Origin: a virus
Taxonomy: Duplodnaviria > Heunggongvirae > Uroviricota > Caudoviricetes
DNA: 64,000 bases
Strand: one strand, 5' to 3'
IMG/VR virus record: IMGVR_UViG_2700989400_000004
Coordinates: 1 to 64,000 of that record
Notes under the pieces: model-generated
Database searches by the model: none
Told to the model about the DNA's origin: nothing
Seen by the model: the letters and a program-made list of their open reading frames with translations, nothing else
Shown here: one piece after another, positions 13,922 through 63,028 of the stretch
Numbering within the stretch: the stretch's first letter is position 1
Layout of the letters: every line of letters starts with the position of its first letter
Made by a program: the position numbers and the translations under genes

Positions 13922-14096
13922 GACGCCACCGATAACCGTTATTTATCAGACCAAAGAAACTGGCATCTACTTTAATGCAGATGATTGTGTCAGGGTAATT
14001 TATGAACGGTTAAAACTGTGAAAAATCAGTTAGTGATAAGTAAAAACTATCGCTACGTGAACCGGGTCACACTTTTTACTGATGACGGGAAAGGTT

Positions 14097-18334: not shown

Positions 18335-18432
18335 ATGGGTAGTTTATTGTAAAATATATTTATATTCAATGCGTTATGTTTTATTTTTGATTTTGATTTA
18401 TCAATTTGGTCACTATTTGGTACACAAAAAGA

Positions 18433-18452
18433 AACGAGGCGTTAGCCTCGTT
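18433..18452 (-). terminator. rho-independent terminator after tail fiber gene
   Basis: AACGAGGC/GCCTCGTT stem, T-rich run on minus strand. Confidence 0.5.
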
Positions 18453-18483
18453 TCGCGCGGCGATGTTCTTCGCACATCACCTT

Positions 18484-20568
18484 TTACTCTTCGCTTCCGG
18501 TCAACTGCTTAACAAGCGCAACCAGTTCGCTTACCTGATTTTCAAGCGCGGTAATGCGTGCATCTTGAGTAACTATGGCTATATCTTGATCCTTACATAC
18601 TCTGACGAGATATCCAACGATGCCGGAGTAATTAACACCCAAAACAATTTTTTCACCAGTAAGCACGGTGCCGTCACTTGTCGGTCCTGGCATCTCTTTT
18701 GTTATTGTTACTTCGCGAACTACTTGCGGCAATATCTTTTGCCATTCCTGTGCTATAACACCAGCGCACGCCCTATTATCACCAATAAAATTGAATGTAT
18801 ATCCGTTAACGTGCTGCAATAATTTTCTGGCCTCCTGTATTTCCATAATATTTTCTTTTTCATTTATATCTGATGTTTGTGTTAATTCTGAGCAGGAGAC
18901 TTTACCGGATGTGAAGATATCTGCGGTTGATGTTATTTTTTGTGAGAAGTTGGCTGTTGCTGTTACGTTCATTTTTCCAGCAAATACAGCGTTGGAGTCC
19001 GACTGAAGTTTTGTTTTTGCTCTTACTGTACCTGCGGTTATTGTTGTTGGCGATGATAACTGCTCCGCATAGGATTGCGCATTGGCTTCTGATTCTGCGG
19101 CTGCGGCTGCTGCTGCTGCTGCGTTTTCCGCTTCAGATGTTGCGGTGGCGGCACGCTCTTCAGCCAGCACGCTGTAACCCTCTGCAGCGTCTCTCGCGGC
19201 TATGGCTTCATCCCGCGCGCTGGTCGCTGTGTTAGCGGCGCTGGTCGCGGCGGTCGCGGCACTGGTAATGGTAGCCGCCTGTTCAGTTGCAGTGGTTGCC
19301 TGCGCCACTGCTTCATCGCGGGCCGCTTCAGTGGCGGTCTGCGCGGTCTGTGCCGCTTCTGCGGCTTGGGTGGCGGCGGTTGCTTTTTGGGTTGCTGTAT
19401 TTACGGCGGCTGATATCTTCGATTCGTCTATAGCAATACTACTAGCGCTTGCTTCCGCTGCTTCTGCGGCGGTTTCTGCGTCGTTTTTATGCTCAAGCGC
19501 TGCGGCGGCGGCAGTGGTTGCCTCATTCGCTTTTTGGGTCGCTGTGTTAGCGGCGCTGGTCGCGGCGGTCGCGGCACTGGTAATGGTAGCCGCCTGTTCA
19601 GTTGCAGTGGTTGCCTGCGCCACTGCTTCATCGCGGGCCGCTTCAGTGGCGGTCTGCGCGGTCTGTGCCGCTTCTGCGGCTTGGGTGGCGGCGGTTGCTT
19701 TTGCTGCCAGTTCTTTTTCATCGATAGCGATATTAGCGGCGGTTGTTTCTGCTGCTGCGGCTGCGGCTTCGGATTTCTCCGCTTCTTCCTTCGCATACAT
19801 GCGCAATTCATAAACAGCGGCACGATCTGCCGCTACGGCTTCGGCATCTGTATTGGCTGCTGCGGCGGCTTGGGTGGCGGCTGACGCCTGTTCAGTTGCT
19901 ACTGTTGCTCGTTCAGTTGCGACGACTGCTCTCGCGGTAGCTTCGTCGCGTGCTGCTTCGGTAGCAGTCTGCGCGGTCTGTGCGGCGGTGGCGGCATTGG
20001 TGGCGGTAGTAGCTTGTTCGGTCGCTACGGTTGCCTGTGTGGCGGCGGTGGCGGCTTGTTCACCAGCCAGCACGCTGTAACCTTCTGCGGCATCTTTCGC
20101 GGCAATAGCTTCATGCCGCGCGGCGGCGGTTGTTTCAACGTCTGCGGCGGTGGCGGCGGCGTTGGCGGTTGATTGCGCTGTTTCTGCCTGAATAGCGGTT
20201 AACAGTGCTTCTACCTGCGCGGCATCACCATAATTTTTCCAGTATTCAACGGCGGCATAGATCTCTGATTCCTGCCCGGTGAAATAGCGTAATGCTTCCG
20301 CTACGTCTTGCGCCAGCCCGTCAACTGAGATCGAATCGCACAGTAAAATACTGTAAGCAGTACCCGCCGGAATATCCGGTGATGCTGCCGGGGTTATAGA
20401 TAATTCCGTTTCACTGACAATTTCAGTGATGGAAAAGATCTGAATAGGGTCGCTTTTTACAATAACTGTGCACCCCACGCGGATCATGGATAAGGGTGCT
20501 TTAAAATTTGTACCCGTCCCGGTCAGCGTGTTACCGGATACGGCAATACTTCCAATGGTGTAGATCAT
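18484..20568 (-). CDS. side tail fiber protein with Ala/Thr-rich tandem repeats and C-terminal intramolecular-chaperone (S74-like) domain
   Basis: 694 aa; repeated ATQKATAATQAAEAAQTAQTATEAARDEA units; C-terminal SDINEKENI autoproteolysis-type motif. Confidence 0.7.
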   Translation of the reverse strand: MIYTIGSIAVSGNTLTGTGTNFKAPLSMIRVGCTVIVKSDPIQIFSITEIVSETELSITPAASPDIPAGTAYSILLCDSISVDGLAQDVAEALRYFTGQESEIYAAVEYWKNYGDAAQVEALLTAIQAETAQSTANAAATAADVETTAAARHEAIAAKDAAEGYSVLAGEQAATAATQATVATEQATTATNAATAAQTAQTATEAARDEATARAVVATERATVATEQASAATQAAAAANTDAEAVAADRAAVYELRMYAKEEAEKSEAAAAAAETTAANIAIDEKELAAKATAATQAAEAAQTAQTATEAARDEAVAQATTATEQAATITSAATAATSAANTATQKANEATTAAAAALEHKNDAETAAEAAEASASSIAIDESKISAAVNTATQKATAATQAAEAAQTAQTATEAARDEAVAQATTATEQAATITSAATAATSAANTATSARDEAIAARDAAEGYSVLAEERAATATSEAENAAAAAAAAAESEANAQSYAEQLSSPTTITAGTVRAKTKLQSDSNAVFAGKMNVTATANFSQKITSTADIFTSGKVSCSELTQTSDINEKENIMEIQEARKLLQHVNGYTFNFIGDNRACAGVIAQEWQKILPQVVREVTITKEMPGPTSDGTVLTGEKIVLGVNYSGIVGYLVRVCKDQDIAIVTQDARITALENQVSELVALVKQLTGSEE
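19226..19706. repeat. in-frame tandem duplication (315-bp period) inside tail fiber gene
   Basis: Near-identical about 165-bp segments at 19226-19392 and 19541-19706. Confidence 0.7.
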
Positions 20569-20608
20569 CGCAATGACTCCATTATGTTAATTAACGGAAT
20601 AATTCTAC

Positions 20609-20651
20609 CATTTTGTGATCTGCGTTGCATTTTATGCTTGCACAAAATGTA
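20609..20651. promoter_or_regulatory. palindromic element CATTTTGTG-N25-CACAAAATG upstream of tail fiber gene
   Basis: Perfect 9-bp inverted repeat enclosing TTTTGTGATCTGCGT; related copies upstream of L, tape measure and M. Confidence 0.5.
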
Positions 20652-20753
20652 TTTATTGATTTATGCCAATACAATAAATCATTTACAGTGAATGTAACTT
20701 GCCACAATTTATGATGTAAATTATTGGCGTAAAAATAAAAACAATGCATAAAA

Positions 20754-20771
20754 ACGGGGCTTATGCCCCGT
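20754..20771. terminator. bidirectional hairpin terminator between J and tail fiber
   Basis: ACGGGGC TTAT GCCCCGT flanked by T-tracts on both strands. Confidence 0.5.
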
Positions 20772-20778
20772 TTTATTT

Positions 20779-23700
20779 TTATGCTGTAGTTGATGCGCTA
20801 AATGATCCTGTTCCTCTTGATACTAGCATTGTCGGAGAATACAAAGCCATACAATATGAGTAGCCTTCTGATGCTGATGTTTGTGGGCAATATATTTCCC
20901 CGGTAATCCTTGATGTTGTTAAACCAGAAAAAGCGCATTGCACTGTTAATGTGCATCCACCATAAGGTACGTAGTATTGAATTGTTTTACTTTGACCTCC
21001 GCAACTAAACGTTACGTTATAAGTTGATCTATATTCACCAGATGTCAATGTAATCGTTGCCATAAGCATAACTGATTTCGTCAATGCACTGGTTGTGCTG
21101 TCGTTATATGTGATGGTTGCTTTATAACTTCCGTTATACCCAAGTACTCGATCTGGACCAACACCCATGTTAGCAACGTCACCAACAAATGATGTGGCTT
21201 CAACTACTCCCTTAAATTTACCGTCAGTTGCGTTAATAGTACCATTAAACACCCCAGAATTAGCGTATACCGTGCCGCGTACTGTTACGTTATTAAATTC
21301 AGCGTTACCATTCTTATTAATCATCCACCCGGCGGAACCGGAAACATAATTGGATGATTGGATTTGCTGCGCAATTTTTGCGGTAGTAATCGATGCGTCT
21401 TTAATAAACGCTTCGCGCACATACATTGCACCATTCGTAACATAGAAAGGTGTCGTATATGTGCCGTTTGCCGCCGTCATTAACACAAAGCGGTCAACAA
21501 GGAAAATGCACTGCGATTGTGTGCTTGTGCCGCTGCCAGTCAGGCCAAGCGAGATACCGGAAAAATATTTCATTCCGTTACTGTCTGCGGCGATCTTAAC
21601 GCTCCACGTTGCCGACATGTCTGATTCAAGGCTGGTGATAGCGGTTTTGTTTTCCTCAATTGATACTGATTGCCCCTCAATTGACGCCGTGATACTTTCG
21701 ATCTGTGTGGCGGTCGATTCCTGGTAAGACGTAAACGCTTCGCTCCACTCCGTAATCGACGCCTCGTTTGCTTCCAGTGATGCGCTAATCTGCGCAAACT
21801 GTGTAGCGTTGGCTTGTTCATGTGTGGCTAATGCCTGATCCACGCTGCTGATCGCTGATGAGATATCGCCGTCTACTTTCGCCTCAAGGTTATTGATGGA
21901 TTCAGCCGTGGATGATTCCAGATCGGTGATTGTCTGGTTGATCTCCGTTAAGCTGGCCTGGATATCCTCGTTTACCTGGCTTTCCAGTTTTTCGATTGAT
22001 TGGCTTGTTGAGCTTTCAAGCGTCGCGATGGTCTGCTGTAGTTCGGTTACGTTAGCGCTGATTTCGTCATTAACCTTGCTTTCAAGCGTGGTAAGCGCCT
22101 GCGCGGTCGCTTCCTTCTCTGTAGCAATAACTGAATCAATGCGCTCGATTTCCGCCTTCGTTTCTGCTTTCTGGTTTTTATATTGCGCCGTTAACGTGGT
22201 GCGGGTGCTGGTGTTAGCCAATGAGTTATTCATAAGCGCAATGGCTGCGTTTTGCAGGCTGGCGCGGGTCTGCATTAGCTCGTTTTCTTGCTCCGTCAAT
22301 TCTACGCTGATTTCGTTAATCTGGCTTTCATGCTCCCCGATCCCGTCCTCGTTGTTTTTTACACGTTCTTCCAGATCGGCGGTTGACTCCTTCAGGTCGG
22401 TAACAGCCTGGTCAATGTCTACCGTGGTTTGTTTCAGTTCTTCCACGTCACCCATTAAACCGCCTGTTACTTCGCCTATGGAGTCCTTGATCATGTTCTG
22501 GAATTGCTCGCCTTCCATAACTTCATTCAGCACGGCGTCTGTAATTTCCTCGAAGTTTTCGGAAGGTTTACCGCTGGCTTCGATAAAGTCAGATACACCG
22601 AAAGCGTTTTTTGTGCGCACGTAAACGTAATACGTATGGCCCGTTGCCATACCGCCGAAGGTCCATTGATACCCGCGCCCGGTGAATTGCGCTGATGTTG
22701 TTACCTGGCTGAAGTCAGTGATCTGGTTTTCTCCGGCATAATAGAATTCGTAACTGGTATCGGTCGTTAGCGTGGTGCTGCTGATCGGGTAAACAGTCGC
22801 CTGGAAAACACCTGGCACCCAATTAACGCCGACCGGGGCCGCTGGCGCACCAATCACCAGATCTACAATACTTTCCGCCCCCTTCATGCCAGTGTCATTA
22901 CGCCCGCGAATACCCAACGTGTAATTCCCTGCGTCGAGGCCATAAAATTCATAACGGTAATTCGTGGTTTCATAACTTGCCACCACGCGCCCGTCTGCGT
23001 TATATACGCGGATTTCGAAGGTCAGGGGATGCGTTGTTGTCTGCGTCTCCCAGGTGGCGCGGCATTGAACCGTTTCTGACCCAACGTTTACCACTTTCAA
23101 ATTTTCGATGTTCGGGACACGGAAGTGATTTAGCGTGTCGCTACTGATTTCGAAGATTGCGCCTTCATCGACTACCGCCTGTTTGTTCGGGTCGTGCTGC
23201 GCGGCTTCGATGGTGTATACGCTGTTATTTTCGGTTTCGGCTACGCTGGTGATCCGGCATAAAACGGGTTTTGCTGCTTCAGTGGATACAGCGAAAACGG
23301 TCCCGTTACGAATCCACGCCGGGGCCGCCGCTAAGGTGATCTCATTTCCATTCACCCCGGTGATCTGGTGTTTTTTAAATTTGCCATCACTATCGAGCAA
23401 GCTGATGGTGTCGCCTGCGGTGATGTATTCTGAATCAACCTTATCGACCGTTATCACCTTGCCATTGTTCGCCACGATACGACCGCCTAAACGAGCGCCC
23501 GCGCGGTTATTGTCGAGGATCTCGATGATATCCCCTGGTGTAAAGTGAATCGCGTCACGGGCCATTTTAAACGTGAATTTTGACGGCTCGCGTTTTGCTG
23601 TTTCTATCAGCCACTTGCCCGCGCGGTACGCTTGCCCGCGTGATGTGCACCCGAACGCCTCTAACGTGGTTTCGTTGTAACCATCACGGGCGATCAGTTC

Positions 23701-24960
23701 ATCGTCTGCTACATACTCTTTTGATTGCTCCCAGCCGTTCTTCGGGTCAGTCCAAGATACGATCACGGCGTTATAACATTCCGCACGGGCGATACTTGAA
23801 CGAGTAAACGCGCCATCAACGACATTTGCATTTGTAATAGTGGCGATCGGATCTTGTGGCGCATCGATCATCACCGTAAGGCGTTGTCCGTCCCATAGCG
23901 CCATACCTCTGAACATCCCGGCGATATTGTCCAGTAAGTCGCGGGCGCTCATCTGCTCTGTAATGTACGCATTAAGCGTAACGCGCGGCTCAAGGCCGCC
24001 GTAACCATCATTGACTAACTGGTCGCAGTATTGGGAAAGCGTATATAATGCGCCGTCATCAACATCAATATAGCCAGCATGACGGGCAAGGCCAAAACGC
24101 TCGTTTTTAACCAGATAACGGAAGATCCAAGCGGGGTTATTAGTGTACGCCTGCTTGAAGCCGCCAAGCCATAATCCTGAGTAAGTGCGCGTTTCCGGGT
24201 TGTAGTTATCAGGGATATCAACAATCAGCCCGCGGAGGTGATAAGTGCGGGTAGGCGTGTCAGCGTACTGATCATGGTCGATCACTGCGCCAGCTATAGC
24301 CGTGTGAGGGTAAGATAGGTTATCGTCGATAATTTCACTGTAACTATTCCATCGTGTATTGTTGTTCAATAAATCGCCAGTGCTATCGGGTGTAATACGA
24401 CGAACCCGAATATCGAACGGGCTTTCACTAGGTGCGCAAATAATATGAGACTCAAGATATTCACCGCTAATTTTACCGGTAATAGAAACGGCTTTAACAG
24501 GCGTCCATATCGTTGATGATGATGGTTTTACGTCAATCATCATCATAACGGTTGAATTGTATTGATTCCCTTCATCATCGCTTTCTACAAGAACATCCAC
24601 CCCAACATTCAACCTGACTCGCGTCACGTTGGGATCGGATACAGTGCGAACTAACGGGGTGTCGTGTGTTACCTCGGTGTTAACCATAACGGTCGATTCA
24701 ATAGCATTAAAACCATTGATCGGCGATTGGTTAAGTGTACCAGGACGCCAGGCGACACTAACGCCGGGGATACTGACATGACCCGCAGTATCCGTAATAG
24801 GTGTATCATTAAGCATCACGCAGTTCAACGGCGCGGCAGCATTAACCGGACCGTAGATCGGGCCTTCACTCAATATATCTAATACGCGATAAAACTGTTT
24901 ATGATACAAATTGTCATTAAGTAAATCTGGTGTGCTACCGCCACCACCACCACCGCCCAT
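20779..24960 (-). CDS. host specificity (central tail fiber) protein, lambda J-like
   Basis: 1393 aa; size, position after I/K/L and N-terminal conservation; divergent coiled-coil-rich C-terminal half. Confidence 0.8.
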   Translation of the reverse strand: MGGGGGGGSTPDLLNDNLYHKQFYRVLDILSEGPIYGPVNAAAPLNCVMLNDTPITDTAGHVSIPGVSVAWRPGTLNQSPINGFNAIESTVMVNTEVTHDTPLVRTVSDPNVTRVRLNVGVDVLVESDDEGNQYNSTVMMMIDVKPSSSTIWTPVKAVSITGKISGEYLESHIICAPSESPFDIRVRRITPDSTGDLLNNNTRWNSYSEIIDDNLSYPHTAIAGAVIDHDQYADTPTRTYHLRGLIVDIPDNYNPETRTYSGLWLGGFKQAYTNNPAWIFRYLVKNERFGLARHAGYIDVDDGALYTLSQYCDQLVNDGYGGLEPRVTLNAYITEQMSARDLLDNIAGMFRGMALWDGQRLTVMIDAPQDPIATITNANVVDGAFTRSSIARAECYNAVIVSWTDPKNGWEQSKEYVADDELIARDGYNETTLEAFGCTSRGQAYRAGKWLIETAKREPSKFTFKMARDAIHFTPGDIIEILDNNRAGARLGGRIVANNGKVITVDKVDSEYITAGDTISLLDSDGKFKKHQITGVNGNEITLAAAPAWIRNGTVFAVSTEAAKPVLCRITSVAETENNSVYTIEAAQHDPNKQAVVDEGAIFEISSDTLNHFRVPNIENLKVVNVGSETVQCRATWETQTTTHPLTFEIRVYNADGRVVASYETTNYRYEFYGLDAGNYTLGIRGRNDTGMKGAESIVDLVIGAPAAPVGVNWVPGVFQATVYPISSTTLTTDTSYEFYYAGENQITDFSQVTTSAQFTGRGYQWTFGGMATGHTYYVYVRTKNAFGVSDFIEASGKPSENFEEITDAVLNEVMEGEQFQNMIKDSIGEVTGGLMGDVEELKQTTVDIDQAVTDLKESTADLEERVKNNEDGIGEHESQINEISVELTEQENELMQTRASLQNAAIALMNNSLANTSTRTTLTAQYKNQKAETKAEIERIDSVIATEKEATAQALTTLESKVNDEISANVTELQQTIATLESSTSQSIEKLESQVNEDIQASLTEINQTITDLESSTAESINNLEAKVDGDISSAISSVDQALATHEQANATQFAQISASLEANEASITEWSEAFTSYQESTATQIESITASIEGQSVSIEENKTAITSLESDMSATWSVKIAADSNGMKYFSGISLGLTGSGTSTQSQCIFLVDRFVLMTAANGTYTTPFYVTNGAMYVREAFIKDASITTAKIAQQIQSSNYVSGSAGWMINKNGNAEFNNVTVRGTVYANSGVFNGTINATDGKFKGVVEATSFVGDVANMGVGPDRVLGYNGSYKATITYNDSTTSALTKSVMLMATITLTSGEYRSTYNVTFSCGGQSKTIQYYVPYGGCTLTVQCAFSGLTTSRITGEIYCPQTSASEGYSYCMALYSPTMLVSRGTGSFSASTTA

Positions 24961-24973
24961 AGTAACCCCCTTA

Positions 24974-25456
24974 TTAACTTACAACATCTAAGGCGTCTTT
25001 ATTATTGGTTGTGTCAATACCCAGGGAACCAACATTTGACCCTATTTTCATTTCACCCAATAAGATTGGAACGGGTCGCCCCTGGCCTACTCTGTTTTCT
25101 ACACTGGTGTAAGTGTTATTAGTGATGCGCCCATCCTGCGCACTTTCTGCTGATGTTTGCGGCTTCATGTTGCGATACATATAAATAGAATAAGCGACGC
25201 TCGCCACCGTAAGGCCAACCAAAAGCCAACCAACAAGACCAATCCCAGCTACCCCGCCCTCGATTAACGGCGCGATAATAATTGTCGTTCCGTCTGGATA
25301 TTTGTTATTAACAGCCACTACGCAATTTTTTTCATCACAATCCCTTCCTGCGATCCGCAATCGTAATGGCGTACCTAAAAATGCTCGCTTAAAATCCTGA
25401 TTTTGTGCAACCAGCAAGCGAAGTCCCTGCGCTGGTGTTTCGACATTTAGACACAT
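24974..25456 (-). CDS. tail assembly protein, lambda I-like
   Basis: Position and size; hydrophobic central segment; start from internal ATG. Confidence 0.65.
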   Translation of the reverse strand: MCLNVETPAQGLRLLVAQNQDFKRAFLGTPLRLRIAGRDCDEKNCVVAVNNKYPDGTTIIIAPLIEGGVAGIGLVGWLLVGLTVASVAYSIYMYRNMKPQTSAESAQDGRITNNTYTSVENRVGQGRPVPILLGEMKIGSNVGSLGIDTTNNKDALDVVS

Positions 25457-26178
25457 TTTGCTGTAATATCTTCGGAAATTGCCCGTAAATCTAAATCTGA
25501 GCATTTGTTATACCTCCATACTGAATGCATTTGCTTGATATACGCGGGGCGCATTTGCTCTCTACGACTTAACAAACCAGCGATATCGTGATGTAAAATA
25601 GTGTTATTGCCTAAATAAACCATTGCGTGGCACGGATCAGCGCCTTTAAACGGCTGCCTGATGATCACGTCCCCCGGCTGAATACTTTGCGCGTCAACCT
25701 GGAAAAACCCGTTTAACGGCAAGTTTTTTAAATACAGGTTTTCACCACGTAACCACCACCCATCAACGCTTTCGAAGTCAGGCAGATCCACACCGCAAAG
25801 GTGATAAGCATCCCGAAAAAGCGTGTAACAATCAGTTGTCCCGTATATGAATTTTCGGCCTAACAGGTGCGCCACCGGACGGAATTTTCTAATCTTCCCG
25901 CCGGAGTATAAGAACCACGGCAGCCCGGAAATAACTTGCCGTTGTCGATCTATTGCCGACAACACCGGAACATCATCAACGTGAGAGTGAAAAACGGCAG
26001 TTATAACTCCTAACTCGTCCGCCTTGATGTAATCGTCCGGCGAGATTTTGAAACTGTTGCGCGGCGTTTCTGACACGTTAGCGCACGGGTAAAAATACTC
26101 GTTATCTACTACTAATCCGCAGACTTCCTCAAACGGGTGAGCGGCGGCATAACGAGACATTAAATCTTCCATCACCAT
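25447..26178 (-). CDS. tail assembly protein, lambda K-like (MPN/JAB plus NlpC/P60-type)
   Basis: Start MVMEDLM with AGGGTGA Shine-Dalgarno; HSHxD-like metal-binding region. Confidence 0.7.
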   Translation of the reverse strand: MVMEDLMSRYAAAHPFEEVCGLVVDNEYFYPCANVSETPRNSFKISPDDYIKADELGVITAVFHSHVDDVPVLSAIDRQRQVISGLPWFLYSGGKIRKFRPVAHLLGRKFIYGTTDCYTLFRDAYHLCGVDLPDFESVDGWWLRGENLYLKNLPLNGFFQVDAQSIQPGDVIIRQPFKGADPCHAMVYLGNNTILHHDIAGLLSRREQMRPAYIKQMHSVWRYNKCSDLDLRAISEDITAKCV

Positions 26179-26180
26179 AA

Positions 26181-26885
26181 TCACCCTACCTTGCTGGAAC
26201 CAGGGAAACAGGCGATCGGTAGCGCTGCTGGACGCGGGAAACGTAAACGACAACCGCTTAGGCGGTGACTGCATCTATCTAAATTCAGATCATTGGTTGG
26301 TACATCCTTATCAGTAGCCACCGGACCGCCAGAATACATACATCCATCGCCCCTATATTGCCATTGACAAACATCCGCCAGGATAGTCCGGCCTGGGATA
26401 ATCGCTTTATCTGCGTCAATCGGCGTTGATAACTCATACTGAACCTGATCTGCTGTTTCTTCTGCCATTGCTTCAATGACGTAAAAAGATACAGCCTCAA
26501 TAGATGGATCTGCGTCTGGATTGCCGTTAGGGAAGTTAACGGCGTCCAGGTATTTAACCTCCACCTGGCGGCGCGTAACCTTCATTCCTCTAAGGTCGTT
26601 GAAATCGTTATTCATCCCCGTAATGAGTCCGCCGATATTGGCTACAGCCATTTGAGGACGTGAATAAACGCCCTCGTTTTTCATTTCGAAGCCAGTAGCC
26701 TCGATCGGGTAGCTGTTGTAAGTTAATCCCTTCCAGATAACCGGGCCGTAATAGCCATTCGCGCCGGAATGGAAGCGGATAACCTCGCCACCCAGGGGCG
26801 ACAAGTCCAGTTCGAACAAGTCAATCACCGCGCCCACACCAGCGTCCACGGAATCAATAATCATCTCTGTAGGTATATTGCGCAT
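26181..26885 (-). CDS. minor tail protein, lambda L-like
   Basis: Start MRNIPTEMII with AAGGTGA Shine-Dalgarno; position before K. Confidence 0.75.
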   Translation of the reverse strand: MRNIPTEMIIDSVDAGVGAVIDLFELDLSPLGGEVIRFHSGANGYYGPVIWKGLTYNSYPIEATGFEMKNEGVYSRPQMAVANIGGLITGMNNDFNDLRGMKVTRRQVEVKYLDAVNFPNGNPDADPSIEAVSFYVIEAMAEETADQVQYELSTPIDADKAIIPGRTILADVCQWQYRGDGCMYSGGPVATDKDVPTNDLNLDRCSHRLSGCRLRFPRPAALPIACFPGSSKVG

Positions 26886-26900
26886 TTTCTCACCTTCTGA

Positions 26901-26938
26901 TTTTGTGATCTGCGTCACGCTAAATCATACCAAAATGG
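26901..26938. promoter_or_regulatory. conserved TTTTGTGATCTGCGT...CAAAATG element upstream of L
   Basis: 15/15 identical core to the stf-upstream copy. Confidence 0.5.
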
Positions 26939-27014
26939 ATTGATCGCGGTTTATACAATATGTATATTTTACTCAAACGGAAGCACAGTTAACAAAATGG
27001 CGCGGAGGTGTGAG

Positions 27015-27170
27015 ATGGCTGATAAGGTGTGGAGGTTGAAGGTATTCCTGTCAGGTGGCAGGGAAATGACTGTAGCTCTGTATAAAGACGAAGGCGAGGC
27101 ACTGACTGACGCGCTATTACTCACTGAAGACGAACGCGTTTTGGGGTACAGAATCGAACCTGTCAAATGA
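27015..27170 (+). CDS. small hypothetical protein (antisense cassette)
   Basis: 51 aa with GGAGG Shine-Dalgarno. Confidence 0.3.
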   Translation: MADKVWRLKVFLSGGREMTVALYKDEGEALTDALLLTEDERVLGYRIEPVK

Positions 27171-27182
27171 GAGGTTAACGAA

Positions 27183-27530
27183 ATGCAAAAATATAGTCTT
27201 GATGTGTGGTTAAGTGGTTGCAAGGAGTGTTTCGGATTATTTGATAGCGAAGAGGCAGCTTTGGAAGAAGGAAGGATTCTTGAATGTAGTTTAGGCCATC
27301 CAGTGAAATATGCCGCTAATCCGGTGCAGATAATTGATGAGGTGGAAAACATGAACCCGAAAGATATTAACTTTAACGTCAATGTTGAATTTGCTGATTC
27401 TATGGATCAGTCTTGCCCTGGTGAAATACACGTAAAAGGTTTCCCGGCAGACGACATGAAAGCGAAACATGAATACGAAAAAGCGGCGAAAGATTTCTGC
27501 ATCGACAATCTGAGCGCGTTTAATAAATAA
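27183..27530 (+). CDS. hypothetical protein (antisense cassette)
   Basis: 115 aa ORF on strand opposite to tail operon. Confidence 0.45.
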   Translation: MQKYSLDVWLSGCKECFGLFDSEEAALEEGRILECSLGHPVKYAANPVQIIDEVENMNPKDINFNVNVEFADSMDQSCPGEIHVKGFPADDMKAKHEYEKAAKDFCIDNLSAFNK

Positions 27531-27539
27531 GGCGGCAAT

Positions 27540-27788
27540 ATGGCGCGGCGTAATCACGGGGATTATGTGTACACGTTGAAACAAGCCGCCCGCCTTATTG
27601 GCTATCATGAGCATGAATTTATTGATTTGCTGATTGAGCGCGGGATTCTGTACCAGGTTTGTTTAACGTTGTACCCAAAAGCTAAATACCTACAGGAAAA
27701 ATTATTCATCATCATGACGGATGAAAACCAAGTTAATCATTCATTCGTCACTGACAGGGGCGTTAATTATCTGCGTGATAACTTATAG
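27540..27788 (+). CDS. hypothetical protein (antisense cassette)
   Basis: 82 aa; tightly spaced after previous ORF. Confidence 0.4.
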   Translation: MARRNHGDYVYTLKQAARLIGYHEHEFIDLLIERGILYQVCLTLYPKAKYLQEKLFIIMTDENQVNHSFVTDRGVNYLRDNL

Positions 27789-27880
27789 GCGGTAATTATG
27801 GATGAAGTAATCGAAAATGTTTTGGTAGTGGCTGGCGCGATTGCCATCGTTTATGCCTTTCTGAATTAATGGGGTGAATC

Positions 27881-28018
27881 ATGAAAATTGAAGTTTTAGC
27901 ACTAATAGCAATGGGCTTGATAGTATTTGGCGTGCACGCTGCGGATTGGGACTGGTGCGCAATAGCTGAGAACATGGCGCACGCTCACCCAATAGGCTTG
28001 ATGCACATGAACTTCTAA
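27881..28018 (+). CDS. small protein with signal-peptide-like N-terminus
   Basis: 45 aa MKIEVLALIAMGLIVFGVHAADWDW... Confidence 0.25.
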   Translation: MKIEVLALIAMGLIVFGVHAADWDWCAIAENMAHAHPIGLMHMNF

Positions 28019-28022
28019 CACG

Positions 28023-28044
28023 AAAAACCCCGCTTCGGCGGGGT
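28023..28044 (-). terminator. hairpin terminator
   Basis: CCCCGC ttcg GCGGGG with T-tract on minus strand. Confidence 0.45.
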
Positions 28045-28062
28045 GTTATAGGTAGGTGAGAC

Positions 28063-28239
28063 ATGAAAGAAGGTGTGACTTATCAGCATGTGTATACATT
28101 TGAAATTTACCGCATATGTGATGGTTATGTTGAAGAGTATAAAATCTTCCCCCGTGGATACTGGAAGAGAGTTAAGATTTCTGTAAGGTTATTAAAGAAA
28201 ATGTTTAAAAGAGGATTAATTCAAGAAATTGATTTTTAG
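28063..28239 (+). CDS. small hypothetical protein
   Basis: 58 aa, followed by strong hairpin. Confidence 0.3.
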   Translation: MKEGVTYQHVYTFEIYRICDGYVEEYKIFPRGYWKRVKISVRLLKKMFKRGLIQEIDF

Positions 28240-28243
28240 TAAA

Positions 28244-28278
28244 CAATAAGGGGGTTACCCCCCTTATTGTTTTATTTG
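28244..28278 (+). terminator. rho-independent terminator (bidirectional)
   Basis: CAATAAGGGGG/CCCCCTTATTG stem plus T-tract. Confidence 0.55.
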
Positions 28279-28359
28279 TCGTGACGACTTTCTATTTCAT
28301 AGATGATCGCCATTCCTACCGCGATAATAAATACCATTACCAAGCCATCAACCAGCATA

Positions 28360-28545
28360 TTAAACGCCCTCAATCAAGAATAAATATTCCTTCCCTTCGT
28401 AAGATCTGCATCCCACATACCCGTCGCCGTAGTCATGCAGATACCAGGTGTTCCCCTTATCACTCACCACTGTGAGATTATCGATCTGGTAGTCTTCGAA
28501 TAGCGTAAATGATTCATCGCCAGTCTTAACGCACATCCCGTACAT
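28360..28545 (-). CDS. hypothetical small protein
   Basis: 61 aa ORF between M-like gene and antisense cassette. Confidence 0.3.
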   Translation of the reverse strand: MYGMCVKTGDESFTLFEDYQIDNLTVVSDKGNTWYLHDYGDGYVGCRSYEGKEYLFLIEGV

Positions 28546-28555
28546 ATTGCCCCCT

Positions 28556-28909
28556 TTAATTCATCACTTGCTCAAACATCGCGGTTAGCGTGAATACGGG
28601 GCCATCCTTCGTCATGTTCCATTTTCGGCAGACAAAAAGCCTTTGCACTCCATCCATCGACGGCGACCAGTAAAACGCCTCGACCGCGCCGCGCGCCCGT
28701 AAAAACGCCTCCGCCTGGATCGCTGGATTGCCAGCGTCACCGCATCCGGCGCTCGACCCCTTAAAAACCACGCTGTAATCGTCGAGCAAGGGATTAATCC
28801 CTTTAACCTGGCGTTGCTCATAGCCATCACCCAGCTTGACGACCGACACGTTCGGCTCCCTGGTTACGCTGTAGCTACGCTGCGGCGTCCAGGTAAACAC
28901 TTCCGGCAT
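28556..28909 (-). CDS. minor tail protein, lambda M-like
   Basis: 117 aa, position after tape measure. Confidence 0.5.
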   Translation of the reverse strand: MPEVFTWTPQRSYSVTREPNVSVVKLGDGYEQRQVKGINPLLDDYSVVFKGSSAGCGDAGNPAIQAEAFLRARGAVEAFYWSPSMDGVQRLFVCRKWNMTKDGPVFTLTAMFEQVMN

Positions 28910-28927
28910 AATTCCCCCTATAAATTA

Positions 28928-28971
28928 CATTTTGTATACATCTTTACGCGCTTCTACGCGAAAAATGAGAA
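28928..28971. promoter_or_regulatory. CATTTTGTA plus CGCGTA-N4-CGCGTA element upstream of M
   Basis: TACGCG direct repeat also present upstream of portal (42121-42140). Confidence 0.4.
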
Positions 28972-29078
28972 CTTCATCACAAGAATTATAACCAGTTTAC
29001 AAAATGGCTTCACACAGGACGCAACAAGATGTATACAGAAAGCAAGAAGAAAAGCAGTACCAACAAAGGAGGCCCAAG

Positions 29079-29246
29079 ATGAAACGCAACGATAAACACT
29101 ACGCGGTCGTAATGCTTAATAACGCATTTGAACAAGTAGAAGTGGCGATCGTTAAAGGCTTTGATGATGCATTCAAAATGGGCCAGTTCTACATGAACGT
29201 GAAGGAAAACGAATACCGGGATTTCTACCTGAAAGCGGTCAACTAA
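29079..29246 (+). CDS. small hypothetical protein (antisense cassette 2)
   Basis: 55 aa with AAGGAGG Shine-Dalgarno. Confidence 0.35.
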   Translation: MKRNDKHYAVVMLNNAFEQVEVAIVKGFDDAFKMGQFYMNVKENEYRDFYLKAVN

Positions 29247-29263
29247 GGATGATGGGGTGAGCT

Positions 29264-29518
29264 ATGAAACTGGTAGCGATTGATAAAAATTTGAAGGTAC
29301 AGAAAAACGCGCAGGACCGGATCATCAAAAAGGGTAAGGCTTTATTAAATGCTTTCCTGAAAAAAGAAGCTCACCCCAAAAAGTTACGCGATGGTTACGG
29401 TTATAAATTTGATATCAACCCCGATTGGCGGTTATTCAGCGATGATTTGAAGGTGTGGTTAATTATCGAGCATCATTATTATAATGTTAAATGTGGGGTT
29501 AAGGGGGCGCATAAATGA
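29264..29518 (+). CDS. hypothetical protein (antisense cassette 2)
   Basis: 84 aa; translationally coupled to following short ORFs. Confidence 0.4.
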   Translation: MKLVAIDKNLKVQKNAQDRIIKKGKALLNAFLKKEAHPKKLRDGYGYKFDINPDWRLFSDDLKVWLIIEHHYYNVKCGVKGAHK

Positions 29519-29752
29519 GATGGCGTGAATTACATAGCTACGGCATCCGGTTTTCCCTGGTTGTCCTGAAAGATTGGTTTAATCGCCAGGTGGCAAACGA
29601 TGCGTTAATCCCGTTTGCTGATAACAAGCCTTATAAGCGCGATGGGGTGAGATATGGAAGATGATAAATTTACATGGCGGGAGATCTGGAATATTTGGCA
29701 GGTAATTTTCGGAAGGGGATATATTGCGCGGAATGGTCGATTGTAGAGGTAA

Positions 29753-29935
29753 ATGATGATTATTCATGAAACGGAAGAATGTCGGCGGATTAATCTTAGT
29801 ATTGAGTATGACGAAAGATTATGGCTTGAAAGCGACTGCGAAATAATCGTAATAGACAAAAAGCAAGCCGCCGAACTGATAAGCGCATTACAGCTTTATG
29901 TAAACAACGAATTTAAAAATGACGAAGTTGAATAA
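29753..29935 (+). CDS. hypothetical protein (antisense cassette 2)
   Basis: 60 aa, followed by hairpin plus T-tract. Confidence 0.35.
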   Translation: MMIIHETEECRRINLSIEYDERLWLESDCEIIVIDKKQAAELISALQLYVNNEFKNDEVE

Positions 29936-29941
29936 AGAAAA

Positions 29942-29976
29942 CCCCCAGCTTTCGCCGGGGGTATTATTTTATTTTT
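29942..29976 (+). terminator. rho-independent terminator
   Basis: CCCCCAGC tttc GCCGGGGG then T-rich run. Confidence 0.5.
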
Positions 29977-32854
29977 TGCGCGGTTGTAACATGCCACCGG
30001 GGCGTGTGCTTTGTTCCCTAACTACCCCCATAGCCACGCGTTTCATTGTGTCTTCAAGTCTGCGGCTATCCTCATCACTAAAACCGTTTGTCGTTTGAAC
30101 GGTAATACTAACAGGCATGTTGATGCTGCCACCACCGCCCAAGTCGCGGTTAGGAGTAATACGCCCACCTTCACCGGGGATTATGTACTGTTTCCCGCCA
30201 GTAGTGGTAAACAGCTCCGGTTTACCGTGCTCACCAACCCTATAAAGATTGCCGCCATTAACCGCACCGCCGTTGTAGCGTCCGCCACCGAAAATGGACG
30301 TCGCCAGCGACATGATTGCAGACAATGCCGCCGCACCAGCCGCCGCCCAGCTACCGCCAGTTGCCGCCGCCGTCGCCGCCGCCGCCGGGGCCGCCGCCGC
30401 TGCAATCTGACCTTGCGCCGCTACCGCGCCCGCCGTGGTGCTGGCTTGCGTTGCCTTGCTCTGACTTTCCATCATGATTTGGTCGGCTATCCAGTTTGCT
30501 GCAATCTGAGATAAGCGGTTGCCTACCGTGCCGAGAATGTTGCTACCCAGGTTAGCAAACATCTCGCTTAGGGATTGTGTGCCGTTGAGCAATCCGGTAA
30601 TGGCGTTACCCATGCCGCTTGTTAAGCCGTTGACGCAATCGCCGATAAGCGCGTTAGTGTCGCTTTGCGCTTGCCATTGCTCCCACTTAAGCGCGGTTAG
30701 CTGTTGTTCATAGGCTAACTCTTCCATTTTCAATTGGGCCTGTGTAGCGCCTAAATCAGTGAGCATTTGCTTTCTGATAGTCCATTCATTTTGCAACTGC
30801 TGAATAGGGTCTACCTGGCCTTTTTTCTTGTCTTCATCAGAAACAAGGCTATCCCATTTGGCTTGTTGTTCTTCCTCGCGTAGCTGTTTCAGCGTGTCAG
30901 ACAACGCCTTGCTTGCGCCCTCCTTCGCGGCTGTATATTCCAGATAAGTGATCTTACCTTGCTTGTACGCTGCATCCAGGGCTTTTTGTTCTTCGCCAAG
31001 TTTACGCATAGCGGCGGCGTCTTTGTTGTACTGGTCGGAAATATTTAAGCCTTCATCGCCTAACTTATCCCAATCGGATTTTTTCGACTTCTTGCCCTTC
31101 CCGTCCTTGCCGCCACTGCCACCGCTGCCGCTTCCCGTTCCGGTTGGTTTCGGCGGAACATATGTACCATTAATACGGGCTTGTGCTTCGTCGGCTTTCT
31201 CGTTGGCTTTTTCAAGGTTTTTATTAGCCGTGTCTAACTTACCTTCTAAGGTCTTCTGAGTATCCCCGGCGACACCTAGCGCCGCTTTTGCAGGTCCGGC
31301 AATTTCTGGATCATCACTCTGCGCTAATTTTTCCAGGATGGCGCGGTTTTTCACCATGCGATCCAGTTCGGCTTTTGCCTTCCGGGCGTTTTCCTCAATG
31401 TCTTTGAGTTGTTTGTTTATCTCAATCAAAGCCGCTTCCAGTTCATTTTTGCTCATATCGTCGAACGACATAGCCAATTCGTCGATTTTGGCTTTTGCGT
31501 TGGCGGCTTTCTCTTCAGTGCTTTCCATGTTAAGGATAAGCGTACCCAGGCAGATCGCAGCGGTCATGATTGCGCCAGCGGGGCCACCAAGTAACCCTAA
31601 CGCGCCATTGAAGATCCGCATCCCGATGCTGGCGGCTTTTGCTGCTGTACCGGACGCAACGATTGCCGCGTTAGCCGTGGTGGCAGCGGTGCGCATAGTC
31701 GTGTAAGCGGCGGCGGTTTGCGCTTGCGCTACACGGAGGCGAGCAAGCGCGGCGGTGTGGGCGTTTGTACCCTGCGCGGCCTGGTAGTGGGCGCGGGCCT
31801 CCCCTTCTGCCTGCAATGCTGCTTTAAGTCCGGCGGCGGCTGTGTGTAGCTGCTGGCGTGCCAGGTTGGCTTCTGCTGCTGCCTGCTGCGCGGCGGCCTG
31901 TGCTGCTTTCTGGTTGGCGGCTGCCAGCCGGATGTTTTCCGCCGTTGCCTGGATGATGCCACCTAACGCCCGTCCACCCATTACAGCACCAAGTGCAATG
32001 GCGGAGGCGGTTACAACGTCCAGGTTTTCAGATAGGGTGATCAGCGTGCTGTTAAACGCGTTAATCCCGCTACGGATCACAGAGTTTTCACCAAAATACT
32101 TAGTCGCGTTGTTGGTGGCAACTGTGAAGGCATCCGACATAGTGATCGCCATATTGTCGAACTCTTTATCTACTTCGGACTTCATCGCCCGGACCGCTGC
32201 GATAATTATATCTTTCGTGATCTTGCCGTCCTTCGCCATTTCACGCAATGCGGTACTGGATACGCCCATTGATTTTGCGATACCTTCCGCCAGGCGTGGC
32301 GCGTTCTCCATTACGCTATTGAATTCATCGCCGCGCAATTCACCAGATCCCAAGGCCTGGGCCAATTGTCTGATCCCGCCTTCCATTTCGCTTGCGGATG
32401 CGCCGGACACCTGAAAGGATTTGTTAATCGTTTCCACGATGCTTGCCAGGTCACGCCCGCTTAGTCCGCTGTCACGCGTTGCGCGTTCCAATTTGGAGTA
32501 AAGCGCGGCGGTCGCATCCAGTGGTGACATTGATTTCTGTGCGGCCTTAAAAACCCGGTTTGTAACTTCTTCCAGTGATTCATTTGACCGGACGGAGTTA
32601 ACCAGCTTGTTGTTTACTTCTTGCCAGGCGTTGGCGTACTCAATGATCTTTCTTGTCACCAATGCCGCACCAACCGCGCGGGCAACCGTGGATAGGCTCG
32701 CCAGGGATTTACTTGCCTTATCAGCGGCGGTGTCTACCCGTTGCAGGTCTTTTTCCATCGCTCCGGTTGCCTTGTCTACTTCTTTCTGTGCAACCAGTAG
32801 CGATCCGGTTTTGGCGTCGATCGTGTATTCAATCGCGCCTACATTTTTAGCCAT
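29969..32854 (-). CDS. tail tape measure protein
   Basis: About 960 aa, coiled-coil rich, Gly/Ala-rich C-terminal region; start MAKNVGAIEY with GGAG Shine-Dalgarno. Confidence 0.85.
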   Translation of the reverse strand: MAKNVGAIEYTIDAKTGSLLVAQKEVDKATGAMEKDLQRVDTAADKASKSLASLSTVARAVGAALVTRKIIEYANAWQEVNNKLVNSVRSNESLEEVTNRVFKAAQKSMSPLDATAALYSKLERATRDSGLSGRDLASIVETINKSFQVSGASASEMEGGIRQLAQALGSGELRGDEFNSVMENAPRLAEGIAKSMGVSSTALREMAKDGKITKDIIIAAVRAMKSEVDKEFDNMAITMSDAFTVATNNATKYFGENSVIRSGINAFNSTLITLSENLDVVTASAIALGAVMGGRALGGIIQATAENIRLAAANQKAAQAAAQQAAAEANLARQQLHTAAAGLKAALQAEGEARAHYQAAQGTNAHTAALARLRVAQAQTAAAYTTMRTAATTANAAIVASGTAAKAASIGMRIFNGALGLLGGPAGAIMTAAICLGTLILNMESTEEKAANAKAKIDELAMSFDDMSKNELEAALIEINKQLKDIEENARKAKAELDRMVKNRAILEKLAQSDDPEIAGPAKAALGVAGDTQKTLEGKLDTANKNLEKANEKADEAQARINGTYVPPKPTGTGSGSGGSGGKDGKGKKSKKSDWDKLGDEGLNISDQYNKDAAAMRKLGEEQKALDAAYKQGKITYLEYTAAKEGASKALSDTLKQLREEEQQAKWDSLVSDEDKKKGQVDPIQQLQNEWTIRKQMLTDLGATQAQLKMEELAYEQQLTALKWEQWQAQSDTNALIGDCVNGLTSGMGNAITGLLNGTQSLSEMFANLGSNILGTVGNRLSQIAANWIADQIMMESQSKATQASTTAGAVAAQGQIAAAAAPAAAATAAATGGSWAAAGAAALSAIMSLATSIFGGGRYNGGAVNGGNLYRVGEHGKPELFTTTGGKQYIIPGEGGRITPNRDLGGGGSINMPVSITVQTTNGFSDEDSRRLEDTMKRVAMGVVREQSTRPGGMLQPRKK

Positions 32855-32869
32855 AGCGTTGATCTCCGT

Positions 32870-32930
32870 TTTTGTGATCTGTGTAACTATTTTATACAAA
32901 ATGGCTTTGCTTTAACGACTCCATTTTGTA
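32870..32930. promoter_or_regulatory. conserved TTTTGTGATCTGTGT element plus 10-bp inverted repeat TACAAAATGG/CCATTTTGTA upstream of tape measure
   Basis: Seen directly. Confidence 0.5.
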
Positions 32931-32984
32931 TAAAGAAGCCATAGGGAATAGGTAGTTAAACAAACAAGTTAAGTGGGGTGGGTT

Positions 32985-33167
32985 ATGAACGTATACGAAG
33001 CCATCAGAAATATTAGAAATATCGAGAAAAATGTAGGTAACGAGGCGGCGCAAGAAGAATGCAAAATGTACATGAAGAAGCTACCACGCCGTGAACAATT
33101 TGTTTTGGGTGGCCCTAGCCTAGCGATGGAATTCGCAAGATTAAGAAAAGAAATGCTCAATAACTAA
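32985..33167 (+). CDS. small hypothetical protein
   Basis: 60 aa with GGGGTGG Shine-Dalgarno. Confidence 0.3.
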   Translation: MNVYEAIRNIRNIEKNVGNEAAQEECKMYMKKLPRREQFVLGGPSLAMEFARLRKEMLNN

Positions 33168-33185
33168 TATTTAACTGGGTGAAAC

Positions 33186-33923
33186 ATGAAAAACGTAATT
33201 AAAGCGGCTCTTATTGGTGTTATGGCTTTCGGTCTTGTAGGTTGCGCACCTTCATATTCAGAGCAAGTAAAAGCAATAGAAAAAGGCGTGCTAATGCTGG
33301 ATAAAACGGGGGTTAACAAGGATGCATGGAAAGTAAAAGCAGATGATTATGTCGCCGATTGCAACAACCTTAAGAGATACAAAGGAAAAACAGGTGAAAC
33401 CGCCGTACTATTATGCGAACTAATCATCAAAGAAGATGAACTAACAGAAAGCGGACTATATACAAGCGCGGCTAACCTCGGCGTCGATATAGCGGGCCTT
33501 TATGATGTACTAAGTAATAAAAATTCAGCCGCTGCATTATCAGCCGAACGTGTAGCAAAACTTGTGATAAGTGCTAATAAGTCAGCATTTCGCAATAGAC
33601 AACAAGTTATAGAAAATGAATGCCGCGGCTTTATGGATAAAAACTTTAAAGGCTGGAGTGAGTTAAACCCTATAGATGACGAAATTTATAATAATTGCCG
33701 GAATGCCGCAATGTTCTCTGATGAAAGCAAAAACAGAATGGGGAGCATAATTTCTACAACGCTCGCATATAGAGTAAGACACCTCGATCAAAAAACAAAA
33801 ACAAATGTATTAACTAACGCATTCATAGCAGTTCAGGCAGGCTGGAGTATAGGGAATGGATATCACGCCGTAAAACCGACTCCGGCAGAACTACAAGCGA
33901 TTGCGCTACGCGATGCAAAGTGA
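33186..33923 (+). CDS. lipoprotein (moron, antisense to tail operon)
   Basis: Signal peptide plus lipobox LVGC; 245 aa; own terminator. Confidence 0.6.
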   Translation: MKNVIKAALIGVMAFGLVGCAPSYSEQVKAIEKGVLMLDKTGVNKDAWKVKADDYVADCNNLKRYKGKTGETAVLLCELIIKEDELTESGLYTSAANLGVDIAGLYDVLSNKNSAAALSAERVAKLVISANKSAFRNRQQVIENECRGFMDKNFKGWSELNPIDDEIYNNCRNAAMFSDESKNRMGSIISTTLAYRVRHLDQKTKTNVLTNAFIAVQAGWSIGNGYHAVKPTPAELQAIALRDAK

Positions 33924-33930
33924 CACAAAC

Positions 33931-33956
33931 GCCCGGTTAATTCCGGGCTTTTTTCT
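33931..33956 (+). terminator. rho-independent terminator
   Basis: GCCCGG ttaatt CCGGGC followed by TTTTTT. Confidence 0.6.
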
Positions 33957-42111: not shown

Positions 42112-42167
42112 GTTTACGCGTTGCTACGCGGAAAATAGAAAAATTCGTGAGGATTGTGAGGCAGATT

Positions 42168-58048: not shown

Positions 58049-58147
58049 CTTCCCGCCCTCCGTGCTGTATACCTTTCGACTTCAGTTTACAAAACGGATA
58101 CAGCGGGACAATACAAAATGTATATTTATGTGATCGGTATCACGCGA

Positions 58148-62943: not shown

Positions 62944-63028
62944 GTCGCTACCCTATCGCCCTAAAAAGTTTGATGCAAGTCACAAAATGTATTTTTCAAG
63001 TCTTGACCTAAAAACGCCATTCTGTAAA

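Follow-up and report, generated by a model that had tools for sequence, protein, structure and literature searches.

The window analysed here is a 64,000-nucleotide (nt) stretch, positions 1 to 64,000 of IMG/VR virus record IMGVR_UViG_2700989400_000004, and our subject is a 15-nt element that recurs in it upstream of several phage tail genes. The window consists of Escherichia coli chromosome into whose abgT gene a prophage of the mEp021-like (mEpimmI) type has inserted; the closest record, that of the RM9245 prophage, is 95% identical, and the mEp phages are about 80% identical. The mEpimmI phages, coliphages of the gut that were described only recently, are reported to be prevalent (PMC11893012). 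Promoters and repeats are not discussed in the full text of that paper, where 'promoter' occurs once, for the Ptac of a plasmid, and 'repeat' once, for repeats of the J protein.

Tail genes and accessory cassettes

The structural genes all lie on the minus strand, hereafter the late strand, and small plus-strand accessory cassettes interrupt the tail genes at the L-M, M-TMP and TMP-GT junctions (TMP, tape-measure protein). The order of genes, cassettes and predicted terminators is as follows:

18484-20568, minus strand: stf
20751-20774: terminator hairpin between J and the stf junction
20779-24960, minus strand: J
26181-26885, minus strand: L
27015-28239, plus strand: L-M accessory cassette, with open reading frames for a 51-amino-acid (aa), a 115-aa, a KilAC/ANT-like 82-aa and a 58-aa protein
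28241-28272: bidirectional terminator between the L-M cassette and the M segment
28556-28909, minus strand: M
29079-29935, plus strand: M-TMP accessory cassette, including a ParE-like toxin-domain protein (29264-29518)
29941-29962, minus strand: strong late-strand terminator, immediately past the stop codon of TMP
29969-32855, minus strand: TMP
32973-33923, plus strand: TMP-GT accessory cassette, with a 64-aa open reading frame and a 245-aa protein with a lipoprotein-type signal
33931-33948: bidirectional terminator between the TMP-GT cassette and the GT gene

The cassette genes are backed by PHROG or Pfam matches (KilAC/ANT, ParE-like, lipoprotein). A fourth slot, between stf and J, is empty in the window, with no open reading frame from 20660 to the terminator and about 100 nt of non-coding sequence between the promoter module described below and 20751-20774; in relatives it holds a cassette for an Lpp or Cor exclusion lipoprotein. 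The cargo of the TMP-GT and stf-J slots differs among mEp021, mEp013, mEp010, MagusPhagus and E. coli prophages, and the L-M cassette is largely conserved across the group. These units have the attributes of morons: a predicted sigma-70 promoter and a terminator of their own (28241-28272, 33931-33948 and 20751-20774), and cargo that is present, absent or replaced among syntenic relatives.

The recurrent element

The 15-mer TTTTGTGATCTG(C/T)GT has three exact copies in the window, at 20611-20625, 26901-26915 and 32870-32884, as a first-pass annotation of this DNA had noticed at stf, L and TMP. With up to three mismatches allowed there are 14 matches, compared with a mean of 4.0 in shuffled sequence, and no shuffle reached 14. 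The copies and related elements lie directly upstream of the ATG codons of minus-strand tail genes (stf, 20568; L, 26885; TMP, 32855; M, 28909; portal, 42111), as that annotation had also held. The 15-mer itself is 17-45 nt from the stf, L and TMP start codons, and the intergenic region is divergent at every junction but that of portal.

The same annotation described a single palindromic element with flanking inverted repeats, a picture that survives only in part. At stf the inverted repeat is perfect (CATTTTGTG at 20609-20617, CACAAAATG at 20641-20649). At L it is imperfect (ATTTTG and CCAAAATG), and at TMP a strong 11-base-pair (bp) inverted repeat, ATACAAAATGG-N16-CCATTTTGTAT at 32893-32930, leaves the 15-mer outside; the spacing is unlike at each of the three junctions. 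The pieces that had been read as arms, CATTTTGT and ACAAAATG, stand at variable spacing and are separate submotifs associated with predicted promoters, early promoters of the phage among them. A related element at the M junction is indeed present, with CATTTTGTATACA at 28928 and TACGCGCTTCTACGCG at 28945-28960.

Match to CRP sites

The strong half of the repeat, TGTGATCT, is identical at 8/8 bases to positions 4-11 of the CRP consensus AAATGTGATCTAGATCACATTT (ICAP; PMC2504297). In each half of such a 22-bp site, CRP contacts G5, G7 and A8. Compared with the core TGTGA-N6-TCACA, the L copy has one mismatch and the stf and TMP copies have 2/10 each, with a perfect left half TGTGATCT. We scanned the window with an approximate CRP matrix, symmetrised from 18 classical sites; the L, stf and TMP copies score 13.3-18.2 bits, a span that falls inside the scores of the classical sites behind the matrix. 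The nine best sites, ranked by score, are:

Rank 1, 62969: immunity region; 18.4 bits
Rank 2, 26904, plus strand: L junction; 18.2 bits; copy 26901-26922, 15-mer 26901-26915, near-palindromic CRP-type core TGTGATCTGCGTCACG at 26904-26919
Rank 3, 53753: early region, perfect TGTGACGCTAATCACA; 18.1 bits
Rank 4, 14056-14071: host abgR-abgA spacer, just upstream of abgA, CGTGAACCGGGTCACA; 17.4 bits
Rank 5, 20614, plus strand: stf junction; 15.3 bits; copy 20611-20632, 15-mer 20611-20625, 16-bp CRP-type core TGTGATCTGCGTTGCA at 20614-20629, kept in 12 distinct relatives
Rank 6, 32873, plus strand: TMP junction; 13.3 bits; copy 32870-32891, 15-mer 32870-32884, CRP-type core TGTGATCTGTGTAACT at 32873-32888, the left edge of a conserved block
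Rank 7, 28966: M-TMP junction; 12.9 bits; CRP-type core TGAGAACTTCATCACA at 28966-28981, with its better half TGTGATGAAG on the late strand; TGTGACGAAGTTCTCA in mEp021
Rank 8, 50377: inside an open reading frame; 12.1 bits
Rank 9, 58129: early region; 11.8 bits

Eight sites reach at least 12 bits in the 64 kb, compared with 2.2 in shuffles, and seven of the nine listed (ranks 1, 2, 3, 5, 6, 7 and 9) are intergenic sites of the prophage; the host site CGTGAACCGGGTCACA was used informally as a positive control of the matrix. In mEp021 the orthologues of these seven phage sites are among the top 8. At the early sites, the half-sites are kept between the window and mEp021 and the N6 spacer is changed (TGTGATTAGCGTCACA versus CGTGATGTGGATCACA; CGTGATACCGATCACA versus CGTGATTGCGATCACA), which is the sequence signature of a site for a dimeric protein.

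Conservation among relatives

In a comparison set of ten relatives and 15 IMG/VR contigs, a search of the sort that the first-pass annotation had proposed for related prophages, the motif is found at the same three junctions in all relatives with unchanged orientation. TGTGATC is invariant at these junctions, and the constraint falls on the half-site as it does at the early orthologues: the rest of the 15-mer, spacer positions included, varies (TGTGATCCTGAT in mEp010, TGTGATCTGTAT in RM9245). The -35 and -10 hexamers predicted on the plus strand are likewise invariant around a variable spacer, as seen in 13 distinct relatives at the L junction.

The edges of conservation are sharpest at the TMP junction. 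There the conserved block starts exactly at TGTGA, is nearly invariant inside and stops about 8 nt past the plus-strand TATAAA; on its flanks, the side carrying the TMP ribosome-binding site is wholly different between clades, as is the cargo. Judged by these limits, the block is the footprint of a regulatory module whose right edge marks where a plus-strand transcript would start.

A scan of viral contigs with TTTTGTGATCTGNGT returned mostly random matches, together with 16 that have the composite element, all in the same three mEpimmI junction contexts. Distant relatives from other Enterobacteriaceae genera, with an L protein about 70% identical, have neither the motif nor a CRP-like site of at least 11 bits, so that the element is specific to the clade and not tied to the L gene. 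At these distant loci (L011-L020), L has a GTG start codon, and a conserved terminator-like hairpin (GCCACC..GGTGGCTTTTTTT) stands immediately before the gene; some of these loci have M just upstream of L. The arrangement implies read-through (antitermination) within the tail operon.

Predicted promoter modules

Downstream of the CRP-type sites, predicted sigma-70 promoters point into the cassettes. Distances below run from the centre of the CRP-type site to a predicted start set 7 nt after the predicted -10:

26930-26968, plus strand: predicted L cargo promoter, CCAAAATGGA-TTGATC-17-TATATT, -35 at 26940-26945, -10 at 26963-26968; centre at -63.5, or -62.5 in variants with a 1-nt deletion
28999-29037, plus strand: predicted M cargo promoter, ACAAAATGGC-TTCACA-17-TATACA, -35 at 29009-29014, -10 at 29032-29037; centre at -70.5
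32893-32934, plus strand: predicted TMP cargo promoter, ACAAAATGGC-TTTGCT-17-TATAAA, -35 at 32906-32911, -10 at 32929-32934, within ATACAAAATGG-N16-CCATTTTGTAT; centre at -60.5
stf cargo promoter of relatives: CRP-type TGTGATCT site at -82.5, FNR-type box at -41.5
63003-63030: PR-like promoter, TTGACC-16-TAAACT, preceded by CCATTCTG; centre at -60.5
nutR2 promoter: centre at -59.5
58.1-kb promoter: centre at -59.5

The positions from which CRP activates at class I and class II promoters, with the site centred near -41.5, -61.5, -71.5, -82.5 or -92.5, are well established (Busby and Ebright). With predicted start sites, the centres listed cluster round these canonical positions, and L is an outlier.

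The modules also share their internal design. The sequence ACAAAATGG stands one base upstream of the -35 at four promoters, namely those predicted for the L, TMP and M cargo and the early promoter of the N-like gene (ACAAAATGGA-TTGACT-17-TATATT); its position suggests a likeness to the proximal subsite of an UP element. The submotif CATTTTGT occurs 16 times, compared with 4.8 expected, and the extended motif CATTYTGTAWAMW, in which CATTTTG directly precedes a -10-like hexamer, has 13 matches, all within the prophage, against 1.9 expected.

At the stf-J junction of most relatives (loci L002, L004, L005, L007, L008, L010, L088, L126 and L131), a near-perfect FNR-type box TTGATTTATATCAA (TTGAT-N4-ATCAA) lies 41 bp downstream of the CRP-type centre, followed by a -10-like GATATT where the cargo is Lpp or GATACT where it is Cor. 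The window has the degenerate form TTGATTTATGCCAA at 20656-20669 on the plus strand, which is probably a relic, because the Lpp or Cor cargo is missing. FNR boxes are not enriched elsewhere in the window.

Parts of this design also occur in the early region. At 53700-53790 (minus strand, the forward direction of the phage) two inverted CCATTTTG-TA.A.T elements flank the perfect CRP palindrome TGTGACGCTAATCACA (53753-53768); of these, the forward-facing CCATTTTG-TATACT, with its TATACT at 53713-53708, is immediately upstream of nutR2 (boxA TGCTCTTTAA, boxB CCGCTGAAATGCGG, about 53694-53665). This arrangement suggests an internal promoter under CRP-type control that would feed the nin/Q region. 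A paralogous module at 58084-58144 places CGTGATACCGATCACA, read on the forward strand, at -59.5 relative to TTGTCC-16-TAAACT, which follows CCGTTTTG, and is kept in mEp021 with another N6 spacer. An 8-bp inverted repeat, TTGACTCG...CGAGTCAA, encloses a strong early promoter predicted at 62140-62182 (minus strand), ACAAAATGGA-TTGACT-17-TATATT; a nutR1-like site at about 61850-61886 (boxA TTCTCTTTAACAA, boxB GCTACTGAAATGTAGC) lies upstream of the N-like gene (61531-61821).

A proposed model of CRP-type activation

The explanation that we favour, with moderate confidence, is that the 15-mers belong to CRP-type activator sites of cargo promoters, in paralogous modules that drive the antisense accessory cassettes. 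Each 15-mer would be the strong half-site and spacer of a TGTGA-N6-TCACA site, and the site would form the upstream edge of a conserved promoter module of 60-110 bp, placed in a divergent gap between a minus-strand tail gene and a plus-strand moron-like cassette, with its sigma-70 promoter pointing into the cassette. The layout would be a TGTGATC site, ACAAAATGG, one base, the -35, a 17-bp spacer and a -10 often preceded by CATTTTG; paralogy of the modules would account for the 15 bases that the copies have in common. The protein would be a dimeric activator, in the simplest case the host's CRP bound to cyclic AMP (cAMP). Placed about 60, 70 or 82 bp ahead of the cargo start, it would bring in RNA polymerase in the class I manner, so that expression of exclusion lipoproteins, ParE-like and KilAC-like proteins would follow the nutritional state of the host. 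What is directly observed is the motif with its conservation, its agreement with the CRP consensus, the hexamers that are kept and the structure of the cassettes; from these we infer the start sites, the binding of CRP and activation.

The modules are close to class I and class II CRP promoters of E. coli, such as lacP1 (-61.5), upstream sites at -71.5 and -82.5, and galP1 (-41.5). The prophage sites share with them the 22-bp TGTGA-N6-TCACA form with a strong and a weaker half and A/T-rich flanks, a distance of about 60, 70 or 82 bp to a predicted sigma-70 start downstream and, at one junction in relatives, an added box of the Crp/Fnr family at -41.5. They differ in the L site, which is 1-2 bp out of phase, and in their place within a tail-gene cluster, where they overlap the leaders of divergent tail genes. 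The cassettes resemble the morons of lambda (bor and lom) and of HK97 and HK022: they too are small accessory genes set between structural genes, each unit having a predicted promoter and terminator to itself, and their cargo varies between relatives and includes exclusion lipoproteins (Cor or Lpp). Unlike those morons, they occupy four fixed slots that all face against the late operon and share paralogous promoter modules, and the L-M cassette is group-wide and not sporadic. The proposed mechanism is not new in kind; it would be an instance of CRP-dependent promoters and of morons, and ordinary gene regulation. Our search of the literature on CRP-regulated morons and mEp021 promoters found nothing usable.

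Several observations weigh against this explanation. The right half-sites are weak at stf and TMP, and the scores come from an approximate matrix built from classical sites; the top-scoring CRP-like site (62969) overlaps probable repressor operators. All site positions depend on predicted -10 hexamers, and at L the site misses the canonical -61.5 phase by 1-2 bp. The stf module of the window, with its decayed FNR-type box, has neither a cargo open reading frame nor a -10 at the right place, and this copy looks like a relic. Three further points, which leave room for a role on the late strand, weigh against it as well: a -10-like hexamer (TATAAA/TAAAAT, TGG-TATGAT or TATAAT) stands 1-4 nt from the 16-bp core at four junctions; the perfect TATAAT at the M junction is conserved amid variable flanks; and the strong half faces one way relative to the tail genes at three junctions, 17-45 nt from their start codons.

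Should the activation of cargo promoters by CRP hold, exclusion and accessory genes and some early promoters, one of them just upstream of nutR2, would be wired to host cAMP-CRP, and one junction possibly to FNR too. This makes testable predictions about how carbon source and anaerobiosis would change the phenotypes that the prophage confers. For the annotation of this phage family it also offers a rule: TGTGATC site, ACAAAATGG, -35, 17 bp, -10.

Alternative explanations

The three points above that bear on the late strand belong to the case for an alternative that we consider unlikely, in which the motif belongs to promoters or leaders that restart transcription on the late strand, so that the segments TMP, M, L-K-I-J and stf are re-initiated after terminators. 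Late-strand terminators do follow GT, TMP, M and J. The promoter would have a weak -35 and a -10 just upstream of ACRYAGATCACA, and the motif would be the initial transcribed region or the operator of a late regulator. However, no usable late-strand -35 is present, and the -10-like hexamer is lost at stf in relatives L009 and L010 and destroyed at L in L129, where the plus-strand hexamers are intact. The hexamer conserved in all relatives, with neighbouring bases that vary, is the TATAAT at 28985-28990 on the minus strand at the M junction; this one is possibly a promoter reading into M, and the CRP-type core would cover the start predicted for it. A constitutive sigma-70 restart would, moreover, express tail genes in lysogens, and distant relatives have a terminator before L yet no motif. 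The same site-plus-promoter geometry also recurs at early promoters without a tail gene nearby, which points away from tail-gene restart. Finally, a Q-like antiterminator is present and would read through the terminators (PMC11893012).

As for known late promoters of this kind, the motif recurs beside a -10-like hexamer before several structural segments, as in P2, P1 and Mu, but it lies downstream of the candidate late-strand -10 and mismatches the consensus sequences, and no homologue of those activators is annotated, with a Q-like antiterminator in their place. The activator-dependent late promoters concerned have a TGT-N12-ACA element at -55 for P2 Ogr and an inverted repeat at -22 for P1 Lpa, with Mu C as a third case. 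The first-pass annotation had proposed a late promoter or a regulator-binding site: the regulator site and promoter element are supported, with the repeat, CRP-like in consensus, at the edge of a phylogenetically footprinted block beside predicted sigma-70 promoters, but the evidence points to the opposite-strand cassettes and not to a restart of the tail genes.

A second alternative keeps the activator site and changes its owner. We give the same low probability to a dimeric regulator of CRP-like specificity encoded by the phage, which would hold early and cargo promoters in one phage regulon. The seven sites extend over the immunity, early and tail-junction regulatory regions and are kept in mEp021, the composite modules are confined to the mEpimmI clade, and conservation of TCT and of the T at core position 12 goes beyond the strict needs of CRP. 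No member of the Crp/Fnr family or other obvious candidate is annotated in mEp021, however, and the likely repressor operators are different, consisting of CTTG/CAAG-type repeats. The 8/8 match of the strong half is to the E. coli CRP consensus, and the positions relative to predicted start sites suit CRP class I spacing.

The CRP-type site lies over +1 to +16 of the late-strand -10-like hexamer at four junctions and also about 60-80 bp upstream of a cargo promoter, which is the ground for a two-way switch: one bound protein, CRP or a phage mimic, would turn on the antisense cargo and block re-initiation of the terminator-bounded tail segments. We regard this as decidedly unlikely. If it were true, both the transcription of the tail genes and the genes for lysogenic conversion would depend on host cAMP and, through the FNR-type box, on oxygen, giving a segmented, nutritionally gated late operon.

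Very unlikely, in our view, is that the conserved blocks are chiefly homology linkers, boundaries for recombination at which cassettes and tail alleles are exchanged among related prophages, a role that the first-pass annotation had also raised. The blocks share with lambdoid module-junction linkers their short, conserved, non-coding nature and mosaic flanks; at TGTGA and past the -10 their edges are sharp, and beyond them lie mosaic 5' ends of TMP in one direction and unrelated, varying cargo in the other. A recombination role fits these edges but is unnecessary to explain them, as conservation of any functional promoter would yield the same boundaries as a by-product. Neutral linkers would not keep hexamers and half-sites while the spacers and N6 vary, a pattern that suggests selection for promoter or operator function and not for homology alone, and three paralogous copies in one genome would risk deletions.

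Least credible, and highly improbable, is a role as RNA in the late transcript (a processing site, translation enhancer or antitermination signal): the motif's place on the late strand, 17-45 nt before the start codons of stf, L and TMP, would suit such a role, but when both strands of the four junctions were folded only the TMP inverted repeat was significant (z = -4.6), and it excludes the 15-mer, whereas the stf stem encloses the motif and L has nothing significant, so that no fold is shared; one arm is changed in L009 without a compensating change; the A-run between motif and ribosome-binding site becomes a T-run in one clade; the motif is unlike phage boxA/boxB (TGCTCTTTAA and a UGAAAU-loop hairpin); and an Rfam search over 20400-34000 at E<=1 gave no relevant match, which leaves the first-pass suggestion of RNA processing or antitermination unsupported.

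Other elements in the window

The direct repeat TACGCG-N4-TACGCG occurs exactly twice. One copy is at the M junction (28945-28960), where the late strand reads CGCGTAGAAGCGCGTA and could form a small CGCG/CGCG hairpin. The other, which the first-pass annotation had rightly seen before portal and put at 42121-42140, is slightly further left, at 42115-42130 in the co-directional terL-portal spacer. Both are conserved in relatives, before M and before portal, in the same late-strand orientation (CGCGTA-N4-CGCGTA) and within about 30 nt of shared sequence; the hairpin would have a UAG(A/C)A(G/A) loop, and the element is unlike the boxB of this phage. As no antisense cassette adjoins the portal copy, the repeat probably belongs to the late strand and is separate from the 15-mer. 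A tentative further reading of the repeat is a CpxR-like pattern, GTAGA-N5-GTAAA.

Other identities were compared and rejected. The nut-type sites of the prophage (nutR1, about 61850-61886; nutR2, 53665-53694), with a boxA (T/G)NCTCTTTAA and a UGAAAU-loop hairpin, are unlike the 15-mer and the CGCG-UAGAAG-CGCG element. The motifs for invertase sites (hix/gix), integron attC, IHF, TyrR, LacI/GalR-type operators, P2 Ogr and P1 Lpa gave no sequence match. Nor is the repeat a repressor operator: the immunity region at 62944-63080 is built of GCAAGTC / CTTG..CAAG repeats, probable operators of repressor and Cro, and not of TGTGATCT or CATTTTGT, and the CRP-like site at 62969-62984 overlaps one of these repeats.

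At the end of the prophage (about 18334-18484), phage sequence adjoins a truncated abgT, as in strains RM9245 and UMNK88, so that abgT is the integration site for this type of integrase.

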